Notes under the pieces: generated by a model
What the model saw: the letters and a program-made list of their open reading frames with translations, nothing else
Told to the model about the DNA's origin: nothing
Databases searched by the model: none
Sequence record: MT884006.2
Strand: one strand, 5' to 3'
Source of the DNA: Escherichia phage vb_EcoM_bov9_1
DNA length: 64,000 bases
Position numbers and translations under genes: made by a program
Shown here: positions 2,429 to 10,595 of the stretch, piece after piece
How the letters are laid out: each line of letters opens with the position of its first letter
Numbering within the stretch: the first letter of the stretch is position 1

Positions 2429-2458
2429 ATTATACCACATCCTTGTGGTAAAGTAAAC
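2429..2458 (-). promoter_or_regulatory. T4-type early promoter (GTTTAC -35, TGgTATAAT extended -10 on minus strand)
   Basis: plus strand shows attatacca...gtaaac with about 18-nt spacer, i.e. reverse complement of the early promoter consensus; lies between gene 39 stop and the rIIA.1 start. Confidence 0.6.
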
Positions 2459-4278
2459 TACTGGCTCATCCATTCTTTACGAAGGTCAGCATTATCCCCC
2501 ATGAGCATTTCAAAAAGCTCTTTCCAGTTCTCAGGAAGTTTAACAACATCATATACTGGGTTTTGAATCATCTCACGATATTCAGATTTTTCCAAAGAGC
2601 CAAGTCCCTTAATATAACGGATGCTATGTTTAGGTAGAGCATCTTTGGCACTCTCATATTCAGCGACTGTATAAAACCATTCTTGTTTTTTACCGACCTG
2701 AGCGATGATTACAGGAGTTTTGACAAAACGAATTCGTCCTTGCTCAAACAATTCTGGCCAATTACTAAAAAATCCGAGCAGAGAAGGATAAATGCTTCCT
2801 AAACCATCATGGTCAGCATCGGTCATAATAGCAATATTATGATAATTCAAGTTTTCAGCTTTTTCACCAAGAACTAATCCAGTGATTGCGCAAATATCAA
2901 ATAGTTCTTTGTTTTTAAGCATATCAGCATATGACATACCCCAACTGTTGAGAACTTTACCACGCAATGGATAACCACCATGAAGTTCTTTATCACGAAC
3001 ATCAATAAGATATCCGATAGCAGAATCACCCTCGGTTAAGAACAATGTAGTATCAGCATCTTTACCACAAAGATTCGCTTTAATATGTTTATGAACCTTA
3101 GCTTTAGAAGCCTTTTTAGCTGCTTTAGTTTCTGCTGCTTTTTCTGCTGCCAATTTACGAGCCAAGGCAGCTTCAATAATCGGCATTAGAATTGCTTCAT
3201 TATTTAGAATAGCACGTGAAATCTTTTTAGCATCAAGCTGAATATGACTACGGATTTCACCAAATGGAGAAGTCAAACGCTCTTTAGTTTGAGAATCAAA
3301 TCGCATGTTTTTCATATCACGAACAAACATAACGATAGTCAAACATTCTTTAACGCGTGCTTTAGTTACATCAATTTTGAACTTACGTTTGATTTGTGGA
3401 ATAAGGTCTTCACAAATATCATCCATAACACAGTCAATGTGATGGCCACCATTCTTAGTATGAATGTTATTGACGTATGTTAATTGACGAAAACCATCCG
3501 GTGAACGACCAACCGCAATAGAACAATTTTCTTGTTCTTGAACGATAGCATGCTCATCATATTGGCGTGCATATTTCTTAAAATTGCCCTGAACCTTTTT
3601 ACCATTAAAGGTAAATTGAATATCAGGATAAACTACTGCAAGTGTCTGGAGACGATCTAGTGTAATGTCAAGATAAACTTGGGACAGCTCATTAGTTTCA
3701 AATGACATAAAATCAGGAATGAAAGTAACACGAGTTCCTTTCCATTTTCCAGGAATATCTTCCCATGATTTATTTTCCATGCCGTTTGAACAACGAACTA
3801 CAATATTATTTTGACCATCACCAGTTTCACCGACAAACATCACAGAAAAAATGTTTGTCAAACTAGAACCAACACCATTCATACCGCCAGTGACGCGTTC
3901 TTTATCATCACCAAAGTTACCACCTGCTTTTGGAATAGTCCATGCAGCAACAGGACCAGGAATTTCTTCACCGGTAGGTGTTTTAACCATTGCCTGCGGA
4001 ATACCACGACCGTTATCTTCAACTGTTACTTGATTGTTTTTAATAGTAACATTAATTTTATTTGCGAATTTAAACTTAGTACGAATACCTTCATCTACTG
4101 AGTTATCGATAATTTCATCAATAAGCTTAACAAGACCAGGTACATACTGAACACTTTCCCATTTACCAAACAGAAAGCGCTCATGCATTTCATTAGCTGA
4201 AGAGCCAATGTACATGCCGCTACGCTTTTTGATGTGTTCAATATCACTCAGAATTTTAATTTCATTCTTAATCATCAC
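2458..4278 (-). CDS. 39: DNA topoisomerase II large (ATPase) subunit, unsplit gp39 (contains the region that is separate gene 60 in T4)
   Basis: 606-aa ORF; GyrB/ParE-like GHKL ATPase motifs (IIDNSVDE, EDNGRGIP, GGMNGVGSS) followed by TOPRIM-like region (LFLTEGDSA); contiguous reading frame. Confidence 0.9.
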   Translation of the reverse strand: MMIKNEIKILSDIEHIKKRSGMYIGSSANEMHERFLFGKWESVQYVPGLVKLIDEIIDNSVDEGIRTKFKFANKINVTIKNNQVTVEDNGRGIPQAMVKTPTGEEIPGPVAAWTIPKAGGNFGDDKERVTGGMNGVGSSLTNIFSVMFVGETGDGQNNIVVRCSNGMENKSWEDIPGKWKGTRVTFIPDFMSFETNELSQVYLDITLDRLQTLAVVYPDIQFTFNGKKVQGNFKKYARQYDEHAIVQEQENCSIAVGRSPDGFRQLTYVNNIHTKNGGHHIDCVMDDICEDLIPQIKRKFKIDVTKARVKECLTIVMFVRDMKNMRFDSQTKERLTSPFGEIRSHIQLDAKKISRAILNNEAILMPIIEAALARKLAAEKAAETKAAKKASKAKVHKHIKANLCGKDADTTLFLTEGDSAIGYLIDVRDKELHGGYPLRGKVLNSWGMSYADMLKNKELFDICAITGLVLGEKAENLNYHNIAIMTDADHDGLGSIYPSLLGFFSNWPELFEQGRIRFVKTPVIIAQVGKKQEWFYTVAEYESAKDALPKHSIRYIKGLGSLEKSEYREMIQNPVYDVVKLPENWKELFEMLMGDNADLRKEWMSQ

Positions 4279-4321: not shown

Positions 4322-4345
4322 AAAGCTAAAGGCCCGAAGGCCTTT
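4322..4345 (-). terminator. intrinsic terminator hairpin (GGCC-UUCG-GGCC in RNA) with U-tract
   Basis: plus-strand aaaggcccgaaggcctttt immediately downstream of the stop of the 4345..4614 ORF. Confidence 0.5.
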
Positions 4346-4614
4346 TATTTAAAACGAATAGTTGAATCCTTAAAGAACAGCCCAGAACATACTGTTCCTT
4401 CTACTTTCTGCCCAGTAGGTCCAATAGCACGAAATCCAGTATGTTGGAAATCATTTTCAGAACAACCGAACCAATTATATCCAGTGATTTCAATATTAGT
4501 AAAACCACCTGAAGACAAAACTTTGGTTGCATTATCAGCATCAGTACATCCTACTAAAGACACTGCTAATACTAATGCTGCAATAGAACGATTAATATAT
4601 TTCATAATTTTCAC
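4345..4614 (-). CDS. predicted lipoprotein (signal peptide plus lipobox LVGC)
   Basis: 89-aa ORF, N-terminus MKIMKYINRSIAALVLAVSLVGC typical of lipoprotein signal peptide. Confidence 0.55.
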   Translation of the reverse strand: MKIMKYINRSIAALVLAVSLVGCTDADNATKVLSSGGFTNIEITGYNWFGCSENDFQHTGFRAIGPTGQKVEGTVCSGLFFKDSTIRFK

Positions 4615-4982
4615 TTAAATTTAATGGCTTGAAGAAGACTAATAATTCTCAAGCGACTTCTTTCATCTTTAACTGTAAAAGAAAGAGGGTCACCAGATTT
4701 CATAGTAATAGTACATTCAAAATCAAAATCTTCGGAAACTTCTTTGAAGAAGTCAAATTCTTCATCATAAATTAGAACATTACTCTGACAACTATGAAGA
4801 ATTTTTCCATCATTTCCAGATGCTGTACTAATCATTGTAACATTATGACCTTTCATATCTTCAACGATAAATTCACTAGTCAATATTACAGCATTAATAG
4901 AACTATTCCTATTACTAGCAGAAAGTAGATATTTCTGTTCTTCACCTTCACGAATGCAATATTTCTTACCGATTTTAAACAT
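4611..4982 (-). CDS. hypothetical protein
   Basis: 123-aa ORF in co-directional array, 4-nt overlap with the downstream gene. Confidence 0.5.
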   Translation of the reverse strand: MFKIGKKYCIREGEEQKYLLSASNRNSSINAVILTSEFIVEDMKGHNVTMISTASGNDGKILHSCQSNVLIYDEEFDFFKEVSEDFDFECTITMKSGDPLSFTVKDERSRLRIISLLQAIKFK

Positions 4983-4984
4983 AA

Positions 4985-5161
4985 TTACCCTTTAAGTAAG
5001 TCGTAAAAACCACCATTCACATGCTTAGGAGCAGAAGGCCGACGAGTAGACAAATGATGACATTTAGGGCAAACATCATTTTCTCGTTCAGAAATCTTTT
5101 TAATTTTTTCATATTCATGCCCGCAATCTTCGGATTGGCATTTATAATCATACATTGGCAT
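4985..5161 (-). CDS. small zinc-ribbon protein (CxxC...CxxC)
   Basis: 58-aa ORF not in the supplied track (below the size cutoff): MPMYDYKCQSEDCGHEYEKIKKISERENDVCPKCHH...; fills the gap between flanking genes; coordinates hand-derived. Confidence 0.4.
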   Translation of the reverse strand: MPMYDYKCQSEDCGHEYEKIKKISERENDVCPKCHHLSTRRPSAPKHVNGGFYDLLKG

Positions 5162-5163
5162 AA

Positions 5164-5583
5164 TTATTCCTTAAAGTGTGCTTTCAGCATTTGATACAAG
5201 GACCATGCCTGTTCATTATTTTCAATAGTAACTTTCATGACAGGAAATTCTGTGAAATCTTCTATTTGTTCTTGCTCTTCCTGCTCTTGTTCTTCAGCTG
5301 CCTGGTATGGATTTTCCACTTCATCAAAGAATTCAGCTTCGCTAGTAGAAAGCCAAATAAAATCTTCATCCAAAATATCTTTACCGTAGGATAATGCCAA
5401 TCTTCCAGTAGATGTCACAATTTTAGTAGGACGACCAAGATAGTCAATATCTATAACTTTAAAAGGTTCCATACCTAAACGTCGTGCATAAATTCCGTTT
5501 TCAGTATGGTCTTTAATAAAAGCTTCTTGAGCTTGTTTATTTTTAAATTGATACCATTTATTAACTTCAAATTTAATAGCCAT
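5164..5583 (-). CDS. hypothetical protein with acidic [10 protein letters not shown] linker (position and size compatible with T4 goF)
   Basis: 139-aa ORF; assignment by size and synteny only. Confidence 0.5.
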
Positions 5584-5798
5584 TAATAAATTTCCTTCCA
5601 GTAAGTTGTTCCATCTTCAGTAATTTCACGAAATACACCATAAATTGGTTGTTTATCACCAACCTTTTCATACACATAAACCGAAGTCAAGTGAGTAAAC
5701 TTGATGGTGTGTTCCTTTTGAACTACTACCAAATCTGGATTGAATAATACATCTTCAAATTCGTCATTAGTGCAGTTCTGAACAATTTTACGTTTCAT
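5583..5798 (-). CDS. hypothetical protein (size and position compatible with T4 cef)
   Basis: 71-aa ORF, stop/start overlap with the upstream gene. Confidence 0.45.
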
Positions 5799-5811
5799 TA
5801 CAATTTCCTCA

Positions 5812-6093
5812 TTAATTGAACAGTGGAGCGATGCGTTTCAGAAGAGTAGCAGCACCTTTAGCGAATTTTACATCATGAAAAACAGTTTCTTCTTCCGTTA
5901 CAACACGAGCTTTAATGTTTTCACAATCCCAATTTTTGCGAACAATCTTCAAAAGCTGCAGTAAATCTTTACATTCAGCAATATCGATAACACATCCACG
6001 AGAATCTTCCATTATCGCACGATAACCGTAAGCCATACCATAATCGTTGAAAGATTGCTCGATGATAATTAAGTTTTCCATTTTATTCTCCAA
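5812..6093 (-). CDS. hypothetical protein (N-terminus MENKMEN shared with two other genes in the window)
   Basis: 93-aa ORF preceded by the repeated leader cassette. Confidence 0.5.
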   Translation of the reverse strand: MENKMENLIIIEQSFNDYGMAYGYRAIMEDSRGCVIDIAECKDLLQLLKIVRKNWDCENIKARVVTEEETVFHDVKFAKGAATLLKRIAPLFN

Positions 6094-6178
6094 GTTATTT
6101 TCTGTATCAGTAGTTGATATTGATATAGTACCATAATCAACTACTGATGTATATAGTTTTATGAAAAAATTTTAAACT

Positions 6179-6670
6179 TTATGCATAGCGAGCTTTGCTG
6201 TAGTGTTTAATCCAACTTTCAGGAATGACTTTGTATGTTCCTAAAAATACCGCGTTGTATAACTTAACGCCATCTTCTACCCATTGATCGGTAATGTATG
6301 CACACATAGCGCGAGTACGGTTAACAACACCTTCCTCACCTTCAGTAAATTCAAACTCATAAGGAGCAACGAACTTGATAGCTTGACCGAGTTTCCACTT
6401 AAAGTCTACACCTACATGCGAAGTATCAATCGTTTCAATTCCTTTAGCAGGAACAGCTTTCAAAAACGCAGATTCAAGAAATTTCGCACGAACATAGCCA
6501 AACTGAGGTTTAGACTTTCCATCTTTAGGAATGATACGCACTTTTACTTCAGAATCTTCATCTTTAGCACCGTGTTTAAGCTGAATGCTTACAACTTCGA
6601 CCAATTTTCCTGCTGCTTTAGAACGGGATTTATCAGATACACGAGCAATTTCACCAATATTAATAATCAT
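6179..6670 (-). CDS. motB: MotB-like protein (tandem paralogue 1)
   Basis: 163-aa ORF; size and synteny match T4 motB; shares the segment ITDQWVEDGVKLYNAVFLGTYKVIPESW with the neighbouring 180-aa ORF. Confidence 0.45.
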   Translation of the reverse strand: MIINIGEIARVSDKSRSKAAGKLVEVVSIQLKHGAKDEDSEVKVRIIPKDGKSKPQFGYVRAKFLESAFLKAVPAKGIETIDTSHVGVDFKWKLGQAIKFVAPYEFEFTEGEEGVVNRTRAMCAYITDQWVEDGVKLYNAVFLGTYKVIPESWIKHYSKARYA

Positions 6671-6746
6671 AGTTATCTCTCACTTGTTAAAAAGATTTTA
6701 TACTCCACAGGACCATTATACTCTGGTCCCAAGAGTTTGTAAACTA

Positions 6747-7289
6747 TTAATTCAAAATAGCTACCACTGCACTACGAGGTACTACGCTAAAATCACCTGC
6801 ATGAACAACGTTCAGAAGTTCAACACCATCTTCAATCCACTGGTCTGTTACCCAACCACAGACCGAAATAAATGGGGTCTTAATAGCTACTGCACGAGTC
6901 AAAAGGTCAGTAGGATCAACTTCTTTGAAGAGGATAAGCTCTGCTTCAAAGACTATAGTTTTAATTACTTCATCATTATCTAAGCGTTGTGCTCGAATCA
7001 CATAAGCTTTATTCTTATCATGCCAATTACTTTTTGAAAAACTTTTAACCACAAACTCGCCTTCACCAAAAACATTGGTCAATGCTTTATAACCCAAACT
7101 TAGTTCAGTAGTTTTAATTTCAGTTTCAACCAGTTTGTAGATTTTACCAATTTCGATGGTCCGAGCAGTCATAAAGGTTTCCTTAATTTCTAATGGTTTA
7201 ACAAGAGTGCCGTACATGCTTGCTATATCCATGTCAAGCAGCTTATATACAGGATTCGGTGCGTATTCAGGATTATAATTAAATTTCAT
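6747..7289 (-). CDS. MotB-like paralogue (tandem paralogue 2)
   Basis: 180-aa ORF; C-terminal segment VTDQWIEDGVELLNVVHAGDFSVVPRSA similar to the 163-aa neighbour. Confidence 0.5.
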   Translation of the reverse strand: MKFNYNPEYAPNPVYKLLDMDIASMYGTLVKPLEIKETFMTARTIEIGKIYKLVETEIKTTELSLGYKALTNVFGEGEFVVKSFSKSNWHDKNKAYVIRAQRLDNDEVIKTIVFEAELILFKEVDPTDLLTRAVAIKTPFISVCGWVTDQWIEDGVELLNVVHAGDFSVVPRSAVVAILN

Positions 7290-7291
7290 AA

Positions 7292-7834
7292 TTATCTCAT
7301 TTCAATAAAATCTACAAGTTCAGCATGGGATTTGCGGAACATTACTTGGTGCCCGCCAATGATAACTTGGTCATCTGGCACTTCGTATACAGCAAGATAA
7401 AATCCTTTAGAAGATAATTCTTCACGCTCTTCTCGTGTGAACCATCTCATCATATCATATTCACTAGCGAAAGCAAAATGATAAAGAGCTATAAACCATC
7501 CAGGAATATAATGATCTACGCCTACATATTCTTCTTTCTCAAAGTTAGTATTAATTGCTATATTAGCATTTTTAACTAATAATTTGTCTTCGCGCGGAAG
7601 AGGAATTCTTTTGTTATCATTACTATGATGCATAAAATTAGGTCTATCATAACCTACGTGTAATAACCACTCTTCGCTCCATGAATCTATTATACTCCTG
7701 TATGGCGTTATTTGAACACAAAGATTTCGACGTATTGTTATAGCATCTTCACAATTAAGAATACTAAAAGATGATTCAACACGATAAATTTTCATTTTAT
7801 TATCCTCAGTAGCTATGGTGTTATAATACCACAA
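7292..7834 (-). CDS. hypothetical protein
   Basis: 180-aa ORF with own early promoter upstream. Confidence 0.5.
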   Translation of the reverse strand: MWYYNTIATEDNKMKIYRVESSFSILNCEDAITIRRNLCVQITPYRSIIDSWSEEWLLHVGYDRPNFMHHSNDNKRIPLPREDKLLVKNANIAINTNFEKEEYVGVDHYIPGWFIALYHFAFASEYDMMRWFTREEREELSSKGFYLAVYEVPDDQVIIGGHQVMFRKSHAELVDFIEMR

Positions 7835-7853
7835 CTAACCGAGGAAGTAAACA
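7822..7853 (-). promoter_or_regulatory. T4-type early promoter
   Basis: plus-strand ttataatacc...gtaaac (minus strand GTTTAC-18-TATTAT) just upstream of the 7292..7834 ORF. Confidence 0.5.
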
Positions 7854-7858
7854 ACTTT

Positions 7859-8542
7859 TTATCGTTTTGTTGGAAGAGACAGAGGATCGCATTCTTCCTC
7901 TGACGGAGCATCTTCAAGACCCATAGCATATCGCAAAGCATACTTCATCATCAGGATGTCTTTCGCGCAGTCATGAATAGAATCATGTGCAACGAATCCA
8001 TCTAAAGTTCCCTTTGGAAGAGGACATGTGGTCATATCACGAACAAGCAGAAGTGCTTCAATTCTGGTACGAATATCACGCTGATTCCAGAATTTACAAG
8101 GTTCTAACTTAAACGTATCAAGCTCATTCTCGGAAACGCCGTTAAGACGTTGAATATCGCGAATGAGATCGATTAAAATTGGAAAATCAAATGACATTCC
8201 ACGACACCAACCCTGAGATTTCCAAGGATCGATATTATGCGCATTGATGTAATCATTAAATTTTGCAATACCGTCGATAGTGCTTACATCTTCATCTGAT
8301 GGTGCAATATTTTTTCGAGCTTCAGGAGATTGGTTTTTCCACCATTCGATAGTGCTTTTAGTAAAAAGACGATGTCCTTTTTGACGTTTTAAATCAAATT
8401 TGATTTTAATGCCACGTGAAACTAGTTCATCGAATGTTTCAACAACTTCCGGGTTAGGGTCAAAAGCAATTACAGCCAAATCAATAACAGCTGCTTTTTC
8501 ACCGCTTCCCATTGTTTCAAAATCTATAATAAAATCAAACAT
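7859..8542 (-). CDS. dexA: exonuclease A (DEDDh 3'-5' exonuclease)
   Basis: 227-aa ORF; N-terminal DFETMG exonuclease motif and later HDxxxD-type motif (AHDSIHDCAKD); size equals T4 DexA. Confidence 0.8.
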   Translation of the reverse strand: MFDFIIDFETMGSGEKAAVIDLAVIAFDPNPEVVETFDELVSRGIKIKFDLKRQKGHRLFTKSTIEWWKNQSPEARKNIAPSDEDVSTIDGIAKFNDYINAHNIDPWKSQGWCRGMSFDFPILIDLIRDIQRLNGVSENELDTFKLEPCKFWNQRDIRTRIEALLLVRDMTTCPLPKGTLDGFVAHDSIHDCAKDILMMKYALRYAMGLEDAPSEEECDPLSLPTKR

Positions 8543-8799
8543 TAAATTTTCCTTGCTAAATCGCGAATTTGACCTACAGTATAATCTTGGATATAAACTT
8601 TATTGATAGGCTCATCAATAAATTTTGCCATAGATTCAATGTCTTTTTGTATTTCTTCAAGACTGTATACTATCTTTAAAGCTTTTTCGCGAATAGTAAT
8701 ATTTTCAGGACCCTGATTTTCTTCAATGACAGCTTTAACATTTGTCATAAGAGATTTAAATTGGTACCAACTTAATTCAATCATTAATAATCGCCTCAT
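8542..8799 (-). CDS. small hypothetical protein (member of a tandem triplet)
   Basis: 85-aa ORF. Confidence 0.45.
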   Translation of the reverse strand: MRRLLMIELSWYQFKSLMTNVKAVIEENQGPENITIREKALKIVYSLEEIQKDIESMAKFIDEPINKVYIQDYTVGQIRDLARKI

Positions 8800-9037
8800 A
8801 AAGATAGCTAATTTCGCCTAAAACATAATCATTAATTGTAACAGTTTTCACTTCACCGCAAAAGAATTCTAACGCAATTAAATCTCGTTCAATTTCTTCT
8901 AATTGAAGCATCAACTTACTAGATTCAATTTTTACAGTTTCACGATTTTTACCATGAGCAATTTCATAAATTTCGCTAACTTTATCCTGAAGAAGATAAA
9001 ACTGATCTTTAGTTATTTCCACGAATAGCTTCCTCAA
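8777..9037 (-). CDS. small hypothetical protein (member of a tandem triplet)
   Basis: 86-aa ORF; similar pattern (LEEIE-D ... DY-LG-I) to the neighbour. Confidence 0.45.
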   Translation of the reverse strand: MRKLFVEITKDQFYLLQDKVSEIYEIAHGKNRETVKIESSKLMLQLEEIERDLIALEFFCGEVKTVTINDYVLGEISYLYEAIIND

Positions 9038-9269
9038 ATTTAATTAGTAATTTACAGACACTTTCATCTAATGTAATTACCGTATCTGTATTACTGTGAT
9101 ATGATTGTTTTTCAATTCGTTTAATTGCTAATATAGTATCACTTATAAGATAAAGCTTATGAAGGAGCTCAGCTCCTGTTACCATAACATTAAGATTATC
9201 TTGCTTATTAGTATGCTTCCTTATACCATCTATTAGACGATTTAAATATTTTGAATTGATGTTAATCAT
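9009..9269 (-). CDS. small hypothetical protein (member of a tandem triplet)
   Basis: 86-aa ORF. Confidence 0.45.
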   Translation of the reverse strand: MININSKYLNRLIDGIRKHTNKQDNLNVMVTGAELLHKLYLISDTILAIKRIEKQSYHSNTDTVITLDESVCKLLIKFEEAIRGNN

Positions 9270-9275
9270 ATATCC

Positions 9276-10595
9276 TCACACATAAAACACATCATAACGA
9301 CCACGAGTGACACCAACATAAAGAAGCTGCTGAGCTAATTCAGCATCTGCATAATGAATACAAGGCGTATAAATGAAAGCACGGTCTACAGACATACCCT
9401 GCGCTTTATGGAATGTTGATGCAGGAAGTGCTTTCACTTTACTAAACTGTGATTTAGCATCCCAAAAATCGCTCCACGGAGCTTTTCCGCCTTTGTTCCA
9501 ATTTTTATAAGTTTCTGCCGTTTTACCTAAAAATAGGTTAAACTTATACAATTCTTCATCGGATGAAATTATTTTAATCTTTTCACGATAATATTCATCA
9601 TCGCCGTAAGTTTCTACTGTTAAGTCCCAATGACGAATTAGATATTCTCCAGGAACACCACGAGCTTTAACAAACGTTGATGTATACTCTGCTTCTATAA
9701 TACGAACTAATTGTCCGTTATTAAAAATAATTTCTGATACAGGCTTTCCATCAATTTTATATGTTTTAATTAACGGTTCTTGCATTACAATAATTTCACC
9801 GACAATAAAGTCTTTATCAGTTTCAAAAATCTTTTTACGAATAATATTGTTTAACTTATCAACAGATTTATTCGTAAATGCCATTACGCGATTTTCAAAC
9901 AAATCATCTAGTGATTTGACGATTGAAAAATAATTTACCATAAAATCGCGTAAAGCGGTATCACCAGTAAATCCACGTACTCCATGCCCGTCAACAACTT
10001 TATCATAAATCCACTTACCGTTGCGAACATCAGTAGCTACATCAATAATAGGAGCATTACTGCGTTTAACTTCAGTGAGTTCACACTGATAAAAATCTTT
10101 GTGTGTAAAGAATGGACTGATATAAGCAGTATTTTCTCCTGGGTCAACAGGTCTAATTTGCTTATTATCGCCTATTCCAATTATAGTACACCACGGTGGG
10201 ATAGTTGAAAGCAAAATTTTGAAGAGCTTTCTATCATACATTGACACTTCGTCGCAGATTAATACCCTGCATTTAGCTAAATCTGGTACTTCCTTCTGTT
10301 CAAAAAGAACGTTTTCTTCATATGTTACTGGGTTAATTTTAAGAATACTGTGAATAGTACTCGCTTCTTTCCCCGACAGTTTTGAAAGAATCTTTTTAGC
10401 TGCATGTGTAGGAGCTGCCAAAATGATACCAGTTTCGCCCGTAGATATTAAAGCTTCAATGATGAACTTAGTAAGAGTAGTCTTACCAGTACCAGCAGGT
10501 CCATTAATAGTTACATGATGTTTCTTTTCTTTAATAGCCCTCATAACGATGTTAAAGGCATTTTTCTGACCTTCGGTCAAATCATCAAATGTCAT
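9276..10595 (-). CDS. dda: Dda DNA helicase (SF1B)
   Basis: 439-aa ORF; Walker A GPAGTGKTT, Walker B LICDEVSM, SF1B motifs; sequence recognisably Dda. Confidence 0.95.
   Translation of the reverse strand: MTFDDLTEGQKNAFNIVMRAIKEKKHHVTINGPAGTGKTTLTKFIIEALISTGETGIILAAPTHAAKKILSKLSGKEASTIHSILKINPVTYEENVLFEQKEVPDLAKCRVLICDEVSMYDRKLFKILLSTIPPWCTIIGIGDNKQIRPVDPGENTAYISPFFTHKDFYQCELTEVKRSNAPIIDVATDVRNGKWIYDKVVDGHGVRGFTGDTALRDFMVNYFSIVKSLDDLFENRVMAFTNKSVDKLNNIIRKKIFETDKDFIVGEIIVMQEPLIKTYKIDGKPVSEIIFNNGQLVRIIEAEYTSTFVKARGVPGEYLIRHWDLTVETYGDDEYYREKIKIISSDEELYKFNLFLGKTAETYKNWNKGGKAPWSDFWDAKSQFSKVKALPASTFHKAQGMSVDRAFIYTPCIHYADAELAQQLLYVGVTRGRYDVFYV

Follow-up and report, generated by a model that had tools for sequence, protein, structure and literature searches.

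The closest described relatives of the locus examined here are the genes motB and motB.1 of phage T4. In the accounts of MotB given in PMC6070864 and PMC7827196, the T4 protein is described as binding DNA tightly and non-specifically, copurifying with H-NS and altering H-NS footprints. A common C-terminal domain (CTD) of MotB and MotB.1, their differing N-terminal domains (NTDs) and a duplication hypothesis have been published by Patterson-West et al. (2021, Viruses 13:84; PMC7827196, section 3.2). These authors sorted the homologues into Category 1, which is MotB, and Categories 2-4, which are MotB.1-like and comprise two other NTD types and a 29-aa fragment; they reported both genes in 40 other phages, and left undecided which MotB domain binds DNA. 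The gene pair, the shared CTD and the idea of a duplication have thus been known since 2021, and the 180-aa type described below is already in that alignment, as the consensus line of its Figure S1 contains it (MKFNYNPEY...IEIGKTYKLVEPEIK...). More recently, Kim et al. (2025; PMC12152347) grouped the NTD of T4 MotB.1 with GoF and Frd.2 under an 'LSm-like fold', and found the burst size and latent period of a T4 delta-motB.1 mutant to be those of the wild-type.

The window analysed here is the whole stretch of 64,000 nucleotides from Escherichia phage vb_EcoM_bov9_1 (MT884006.2). Its bases 5000-9000 are 100% identical, with coordinates unchanged, to MT884007.2 (Escherichia phage vb_EcoM_bov10K1, Tequatrovirus nbeco). 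G+C is approximately 34% throughout, and the genes of this part all lie on the minus strand. A comparison of the T4 reference annotation with the window ORFs and the annotation of MT884007.2 gave the gene order of the T4 early region: gene 39, small ORFs, goF, cef, motB, motB.1, motB.2, dexA, dexA.1, dexA.2 and dda. The original prediction placed a 163-aa and a 180-aa ORF next to each other; both are present as described, at 6179-6670 (-) and 6747-7289 (-), with stop codons at 6179-6181 and 6747-6749, respectively, and both of the segments quoted for them were found. As in T4, motB is the last gene before cef and lies downstream of motB.1, motB.2 and dexA, and the ATG of the 180-aa ORF stands 2 nt past the motB.2 stop, like that of T4 motB.1. 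Both genes are within the non-essential early region that runs from dexA to cef. The 76-nt gap upstream of motB holds a sigma-70-type promoter-like site, TTTACA-17-TATAAT (6715..6743, (-); 11 of 12 matches), which is the best site within 5500-9500 and has an identical sequence in T4; the region as a whole has no excess of sites of this kind over shuffled expectation. Judging from match quality, position and conservation, this site probably serves as the early promoter of motB. Within the window, phmmer matched the two ORFs with one another only, so that a third paralogue is absent from these 64 kb.

One of the two ORFs had been credited with the size and position of T4 motB, and for the 163-aa ORF its 90% identity with T4 MotB at the same length, a full-length Pfam match and its place in the cef-dexA slot all bear this out. 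Indeed, Pfam PF17613 (motB; gathering score 25 bits) aligns residues 1-163 with profile positions 1-162 at 331 bits (E 1.3e-99), and phrog_1671 (MotB) matches the ORF at E 4e-76. The product is like the T4 MotB studied by Patterson-West et al. (2018, 2021) in length, locus and upstream promoter-like site, and differs from it by minor substitutions only, concentrated at the hairpin tip (residues approx. 103-119). Given the 90% identity, it is likely to share the DNA binding and H-NS copurification of T4 MotB.

The 180-aa ORF, in turn, is matched over its full length by phrog_2333 (MotB.1; E 6.6e-76). It carries the CTD motifs of the MotB.1 type (DPTDLL ... GWVTDQWIEDGVELLNVVH ... VVPRS) behind an NTD that is not that of MotB, lies directly upstream of motB, and is matched by PF17613 not over its full length but at residues 142-175 only, on profile positions 120-153 of 162. 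By these sequence comparisons, the protein is a carrier of the MotB CTD yet not a MotB, and the two ORFs are shown to be motB and a 180-aa allele of motB.1 in a T4-like phage. This allele is widespread: over 100 clusters hold homologues of 66-94% identity, and among 780 phage records with a match, 355 span at least 80% of the protein. In MT884007.2 both ORFs are labelled 'transcriptional regulator'; for the 180-aa ORF this GenBank label is merely inherited from the gene name. Compared with T4 MotB.1 (P39415; 'Category 2/4'), the 180-aa protein is alike in locus, in a CTD core that is 86% identical and in the DPTDLL...GWVTDQWIEDGVELLNVVH motifs; it differs in its N-terminal 124 residues, which are without detectable similarity, and in an extra disordered tail of 44 residues that includes a DxDxAxMY peptide.

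This comparison is affected by the T4 reference itself. In NC_000866.4 (= AF158101.6), MotB.1 is annotated with 119 aa, ending in ...GWVTDQWIGRWR*, and the sequence reads ATTGGAAGATGG where the window reads ATTGAAGATGG, that is, with one extra G; the frame downstream of this G still encodes EDGVELLNVVHAGEYSVVPRSAVVAILN*. Thirteen other records of T4, T4T, RB55 and RB59 are one base shorter across the stretch, and MT984581.1 and HM137666.1 annotate a MotB.1 of 143 aa with a complete CTD. Set against these records, the 119-aa MotB.1 of the T4 reference is a version truncated by one extra G. Kim et al. had motB.1 synthesised and quoted a product of 13.8 kDa (PMC12152347), from which it follows that their plasmid-expressed MotB.1 was without most of the domain held in common with MotB. 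Plasmid work built on the reference MotB.1 should accordingly be read with the warning that an incomplete protein was tested.

A conserved C-terminal segment common to both ORFs had also been predicted, and four kinds of search agree on it. BLASTP of MotB against the 180-aa protein gave 16 identities out of 32 (50%; E 3e-11), the Pfam motB match at residues 142-175 of the 180-aa protein scored 34.2 bits, above the gathering score, and the MotB PHROG profile phrog_1671 matched residues 120-178 of the same protein at E 4.9e-17. The comparison by hhalign of a 23-sequence MotB alignment with a 20-sequence alignment of the 180-aa family yielded one match of 36 columns, MotB 121-156 against 142-177 of the 180-aa protein (probability 97.9%, E 3.6e-13). 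The core segments so defined are AMCAYITDQWVEDGVKLYNAVFLGTYKVIPESWIKH in MotB (6203..6310, (-)) and SVCGWVTDQWIEDGVELLNVVHAGDFSVVPRSAVVA in its neighbour (6759..6866, (-)). Homology extends beyond them to the whole CTD, because bridging homologues match PF17613 across the DPTDLL segment: P0239, P0242 and P0243 match the Pfam motB profile (at positions 94-154, 89-154 and 11-155, respectively) and at the same time carry the DPTDLL and WIEDGVELLNVV motifs of the MotB.1 type. As delimited by these alignments, the homologous domain comprises residues approximately 89-157 of MotB (DFKWKLGQAIKFVAPY...; 6200..6406, (-)) and approximately 125-178 of the 180-aa protein (DPTDLLTRAVAIKTPF...; 6756..6917, (-)), whose first hairpin has lost its tip, some 15 residues, relative to MotB. 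The relatedness behind the idea that the second ORF is a diverged duplicate is therefore real, but it concerns the CTD alone and not the whole gene: the alignment ends at 32-36 residues in pairwise and profile-profile comparison and at approximately 59 with family HMMs, so that whole-gene paralogy fails. The similar length of the two products is as described, but it is incidental, since their domain make-up differs. On this sequence evidence, MotB and the 180-aa protein are domain-level paralogues, not whole-gene duplicates.

The predicted structures are in keeping with such a domain. In the AF2 model of MotB (mean pLDDT 78), the CTD has strands at 97-110, 115-132, 135-142, 145-150 and 154-157 (pLDDT 81-94), the first two forming the long hairpin. 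In that of the 180-aa protein (mean pLDDT 62), the CTD, modelled with moderate confidence (pLDDT 54-66), has strands at 133-136, 143-153, 156-163, 166-171 and 175-177. When the strand registers of the two CTD models are compared, a shift of 21 residues brings their last four strands into agreement, and the 180-aa protein has the shorter first hairpin.

Towards the N-terminus the two proteins part. Residues 1-68 of MotB (6467..6670, (-)) are predicted to form a small, basic beta-barrel, with five strands between residues 8 and 67 (AF2, pLDDT approx. 75-88), marked by the signature VS..SRSKxAG. This NTD has been termed KOW-like on the basis of HHpred (PMC7827196); the Pfam KOW family had no match on MotB at E<=1. 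The 180-aa protein begins with an extension, residues 1-44 (7158..7289, (-)), which is predicted to be disordered (pLDDT approx. 30 at residues 1-42) and is nevertheless strongly conserved, with many invariant columns across 19 homologues. Behind it, residues 45-124 (6918..7157, (-)) make up an allele-specific module predicted by AF2 to be a small beta-barrel with an inserted helix (strand 50-53, helix 61-74, strands 78-86, 95-102 and 108-114; pLDDT 75-83). The hhalign comparison of the families showed no second region of similarity between the N-terminal 124 residues and MotB outside the CTD, and BLASTP restricted to the NTDs showed none between the 180-type and the T4-type MotB.1 (E 0.87).

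At the level of fold, a Foldseek search of BFVD connected the 180-aa model with T4 MotB.1 P39415 (E 1e-5, target TM 0.59; 120 columns, the shared CTD among them, at 28% identity, the model having the extra helix 61-74), and also with a 163-aa MotB (E 1.2e-4, 171 columns) and, separately, with a 'KOW domain-containing protein'. Against the PDB, each of the two models separately found the tandem Tudor domains of 53BP1 and UHRF1, SAWADEE and eIF5A at E 3e-3 or worse, and the 180-aa model alone found EF-P and Spt5 KOW6-7; the OB-type matches to eIF5A and EF-P (E 0.01-0.03) ranked below those to tandem Tudor domains. Both proteins are thus predicted to consist of two small beta-barrels in tandem, for which the labels KOW, LSm-like, Tudor and OB are not distinguished. 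The same arrangement of two small barrels characterizes 53BP1, UHRF1, Spt5 KOW6-7 and aIF5A (tandem Tudor/KOW and eIF5A-EF-P types); with E > 1e-3, 8-17% identity and no sequence relationship, the likeness of our models to them is one of architecture only. Similarly, the 180-aa protein would share with the GoF/Frd.2/MotB.1 'LSm-like' family an N-terminal small barrel, a linker and a separate C-terminal domain, but its NTD has no sequence link to that family, and the match to T4 MotB.1 is at fold level only. A PDB sequence search found no solved structure related to MotB. The sole PDB sequence match of the 180-aa profile, whose diversity is low, was a borderline one to 6lba_A, a 'protein kinase family protein' (22.8 bits, E 6.5e-4, residues 39-99), which is probably due to chance and is without Foldseek PDB support. 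A match of DUF7632 on the 180-aa NTD was set aside as noise (E 0.066; 13.7 bits against a cut-off of 27), and DUF7632 had no match in the other family representatives scanned.

When 1.84 billion cluster representatives were searched exhaustively by HMM, 18 clusters only were retrieved, and no MotB/MotB.1 family member was found among these representatives beyond those 18. P0237, a repeat protein of 1459 aa in which 12 weak stretches of similarity were seen, contains no family motif and was discarded as a repeat-inflated false positive. Among the family representatives, at least four mutually dissimilar N-terminal modules sit on near-identical CTDs: P0232 has the T4-type NTD, and P0231 and P0233 have other types. 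Two modules may even occur in one protein, P0228 combining the 180-type with the P0231 type, and P0229 an extra domain with the 180-type. Six representatives (P0235, P0236, P0238, P0239, P0242 and P0243) join an NTD of the MotB type (VS..S.SK.AG) to CTD motifs of the MotB.1 type, which in the bridging proteins read DPTDLL ... GW/FV(T/S)DQWIEDGVELLNVV.

Three distant T4-like phages contain a single family member in the dexA-cef interval: Klebsiella phage Kpn BM7 (Marfavirus), Kosakonia phage 305 (Kanagawavirus) and Pectobacterium phage PM2 (Mosugukvirus), the last two with a motB.2-like gene before it. Over the 36-residue core, these single-copy proteins are 58-83% identical to the 180-aa protein and 31-53% to MotB. 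Unlike the 180-aa protein, they have the MotB-type NTD (VYVS..S.SK[VI]AGE), and they are without a second copy in the interval; in two of the three, the linker includes a relative of the DxDxAxMY peptide, D-x-D...MY, in which residues vary (DEDVAHMY and DNDTNSMY). Because one such hybrid gene occupies the slot in these three phages, the most likely origin of the pair is the tandem duplication of an ancestral gene with a MotB-type NTD and a MotB.1-type CTD. The copy that became motB would have kept the NTD and the long hairpin while its core changed (WVEDGVKLYN); in the copy that became motB.1 the core would have stayed, whereas the hairpin tip would have disappeared and the NTD module would have been exchanged repeatedly. 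The direction of these changes is drawn from three genomes and the table of 36-residue identities, and not from a rooted phylogeny. We are highly confident in the overall explanation, according to which the ORFs are a motB/motB.1 pair with homology limited to the CTD, most likely produced by duplication and module replacement.

The main competitor is a tandem duplication of the whole gene followed by divergence in place, in which the two NTD barrels would be homologous and the 180-aa copy would have drifted and gained a helix between strands 1 and 2. Both NTDs are indeed predicted to be five-stranded small barrels of like order, Foldseek aligns the 180-aa model with a full-length 163-aa MotB and with a 'KOW domain-containing protein', and MAFFT sets IEIGKIYKL beneath KIGSRVYVS. 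However, hhalign detects nothing beyond the CTD, and the T4-type and 180-type NTDs show no sequence similarity although the CTD cores are 86% identical. Moreover, the several dissimilar modules on near-identical CTDs and the double-module proteins (P0228, P0229, P0231, P0232 and P0233 being among the cases) form a pattern that fits replacement better than gradual drift, and small beta-barrels are known to recur through convergence. We therefore consider whole-gene duplication rather unlikely, and retain duplication with module replacement.

One short element appears to have come through these rearrangements. The 180-aa protein has at residues 19-26 the peptide DMDIASMY (7212..7235, (-)), identified in the window by a regex match to the motif D-x-D-[IVL]-x-[SCH]-M-Y, and this peptide falls inside the predicted disordered tail. 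In P0233, P0235, P0236, P0238, P0242 and P0243 the motif is part of the linker that joins NTD to CTD; in P0228 and P0231 it stands at the N-terminus. A conserved peptide in disordered regions is a candidate partner-binding motif; from its distribution, DxDxAxMY looks like a short linear binding motif retained through domain rearrangements.

The two proteins also differ in charge. MotB is basic as a whole (pI 9.18), which its NTD (pI 9.75) exceeds, whereas its CTD (pI 6.76) and its shared core (pI 5.49) do not. The 180-aa protein is acidic (pI 5.15, net charge -5), its CTD even more so (pI 4.32), and by computed pI the family members besides MotB are mostly acidic. Even though net charge gives only a rough indication of DNA binding, the shared domain is the less likely DNA binder, since it and the 180-aa protein are acidic and MotB is basic. 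The neutral to acidic CTD would then be a protein-contact module rather than the DNA-binding part, engaged in self- or cross-association or in contacts with a common host partner, e.g. the H-NS/StpA-DNA complex, with which MotB copurifies. The non-specific DNA binding of MotB would come from the basic N-terminal barrel, and the acidic 180-aa protein, making the same CTD contact with another N-terminal module and a disordered peptide, could act as a non-DNA-binding adaptor or modulator. We put this division of labour forward as the likeliest mechanism, but tentatively and with less than even confidence. Indeed, Patterson-West et al. assigned the CTD to an OB/cold-shock DNA-binding fold through HHpred (PMC7827196), all PDB fold matches have E > 1e-3, and the CTD of the 180-aa model is of moderate confidence; any role must furthermore be subtle or conditional, as burst size and latent period are unchanged in T4 delta-motB.1. 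A more specific version holds that the CTD barrel is a homo- or heterodimer or H-NS/StpA docking module, on which swappable NTDs and the DxDxAxMY peptide deliver differing activities to one host target, the MotB.1 alleles being diversifying acidic adaptors or antagonists alongside MotB. In this detail the proposal is speculative and, in our estimate, unlikely. If true, it would go some way towards explaining why the results published for T4 MotB.1 were negative, the 119-aa protein used having been truncated by a frameshift and left without the CTD module.

Other functions could be imagined for the same architecture. The NTD barrel might be an LSm-like RNA-binding module acting on mRNA stability or translation, the CTD being a mere scaffold. 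Foldseek ties the 180-aa model to T4 MotB.1 along its whole length at E 1e-5, and it is the NTD of T4 MotB.1 that Kim et al. class as LSm-like. Yet MotB.1 was nearly inert in their reporter assay, in which the truncated 119-aa form was used (PMC12152347), the 180-type NTD lacks sequence similarity to the T4 type, and the best PDB neighbours are of Tudor or KOW type, with no Hfq or Sm among the 50 matches listed, which makes an RNA-binding role distinctly improbable. The original prediction also suggested that the duplicate may have acquired a different target; we regard as very improbable that the 180-aa protein is a second MotB-like DNA-binding transcription modifier, retargeted to other DNA sites. 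It does carry the MotB CTD, for which HHpred indicates a relationship to cold-shock/OB nucleic-acid-binding domains (PMC7827196), and it bears the label 'transcriptional regulator', albeit an inherited one; but it is acidic, the shared domain most of all, and Pfam reports no DNA-binding family in it, giving besides the 34-bit motB match only the sub-threshold DUF7632. In addition, MotB itself is described in PMC6070864 and PMC7827196 as devoid of sequence specificity and as having little effect on T4 transcription. Finally, a chance or low-complexity match as the source of the shared segment is refuted, with practically no probability left to it, by four independent methods, whose E-values run from 3e-11 to 5e-17, and by a motif kept across hundreds of phage genomes.

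The finding itself adds little to what was published. Its refinements are the delimitation of the whole shared domain with its hairpin indel, the conserved peptide of the disordered regions, the warning about the truncated T4 reference MotB.1, a charge asymmetry that points to the N-terminal barrel of MotB and not to the shared domain as the DNA binder, and single-copy hybrid genes that hint at the ancestral state. These refinements may be of use for work on host takeover by T4.

The truncation of motB.1 in the T4 reference (NC_000866.4), where the encoded protein reaches only 119 aa, is due to one extra G within the conserved GWVTDQWIEDG motif. This stretch (7291–7310 of the T4 reference) was compared with positions 6825–6848 of the window and with positions 677–1108 of two further sequences (L003 and L004). 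At the same stretch, 13 other records (T4, T4T, RB55 and RB59) are 1 nt shorter than the reference, and two of these 13 are annotated with a 143-aa MotB.1 possessing the full C-terminal domain. The 2025 study of MotB.1 (PMC12152347) used a gene made by synthesis and gives the mass of its product as 13.8 kDa; this 13.8 kDa protein is the truncated form.

A short peptide with the pattern D-x-D-[IVL]-x-[SCH]-M-Y is conserved inside predicted disordered segments of the MotB/MotB.1 family. It is encoded at 7212–7235 of the window (minus strand) and is found in the family representatives P0228, P0231, P0233, P0235, P0236, P0238, P0242 and P0243. Its position varies: the 180-aa type carries it N-terminally, other family members in the linker between domains. 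This peptide is a candidate partner-binding motif, of which no mention was found in the consulted portions of published MotB/MotB.1 work.

Upstream of motB, the −10 hexamer of the promoter-like site is enclosed by an inverted repeat, GGACCA...TGGTCC (6707–6730, minus strand), which is also kept in T4. On the same strand, dexA.1 and dexA.2 (8542–8799 and 8777–9037) are full-length tandem paralogues (31% identity over 83 aa, E 2e-10) whose reading frames overlap by approximately 20 nt. A third, adjacent ORF of similar size (86 aa; 9009–9269, minus strand) aligns weakly with them, at 18% identity.

Two minus-strand ORFs of the window match nothing annotated in the corresponding interval of the T4 reference: one of 93 aa (phrog_3720; 5812–6093) between cef and motB, and one of 123 aa (4611–4982) between the 39.1-like and 39.2-like genes. 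Both are typical variable small early genes. A small ORF (4345–4614, minus strand) starts with MKIMKYINRSIAALVLAVSLVGCTD, which resembles the signal peptide of a lipoprotein, lipobox (LVGC) included. A single uninterrupted 606-aa ORF (2458–4278, minus strand) encodes the topoisomerase II large subunit; in T4, by contrast, this subunit is divided between gp39 and gp60, with the translational bypass element.

In a 43-aa metagenomic protein (P0241), the N-terminus of motB.2 (MKIYRVESSFSIL) runs straight into the final 28 residues of the MotB.1 C-terminal domain, an apparent deletion taking out most of motB.2 and motB.1. Finally, the dexA–cef slot of Klebsiella, Kosakonia and Pectobacterium T4-like phages holds one MotB-family gene each (L005, 2776–3156; L006, 2731–3180; L007, 2719–3192, respectively), the product of which has an N-terminal domain of the MotB type and a C-terminal core of the MotB.1 type. 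This single gene may represent the ancestral single-copy state.
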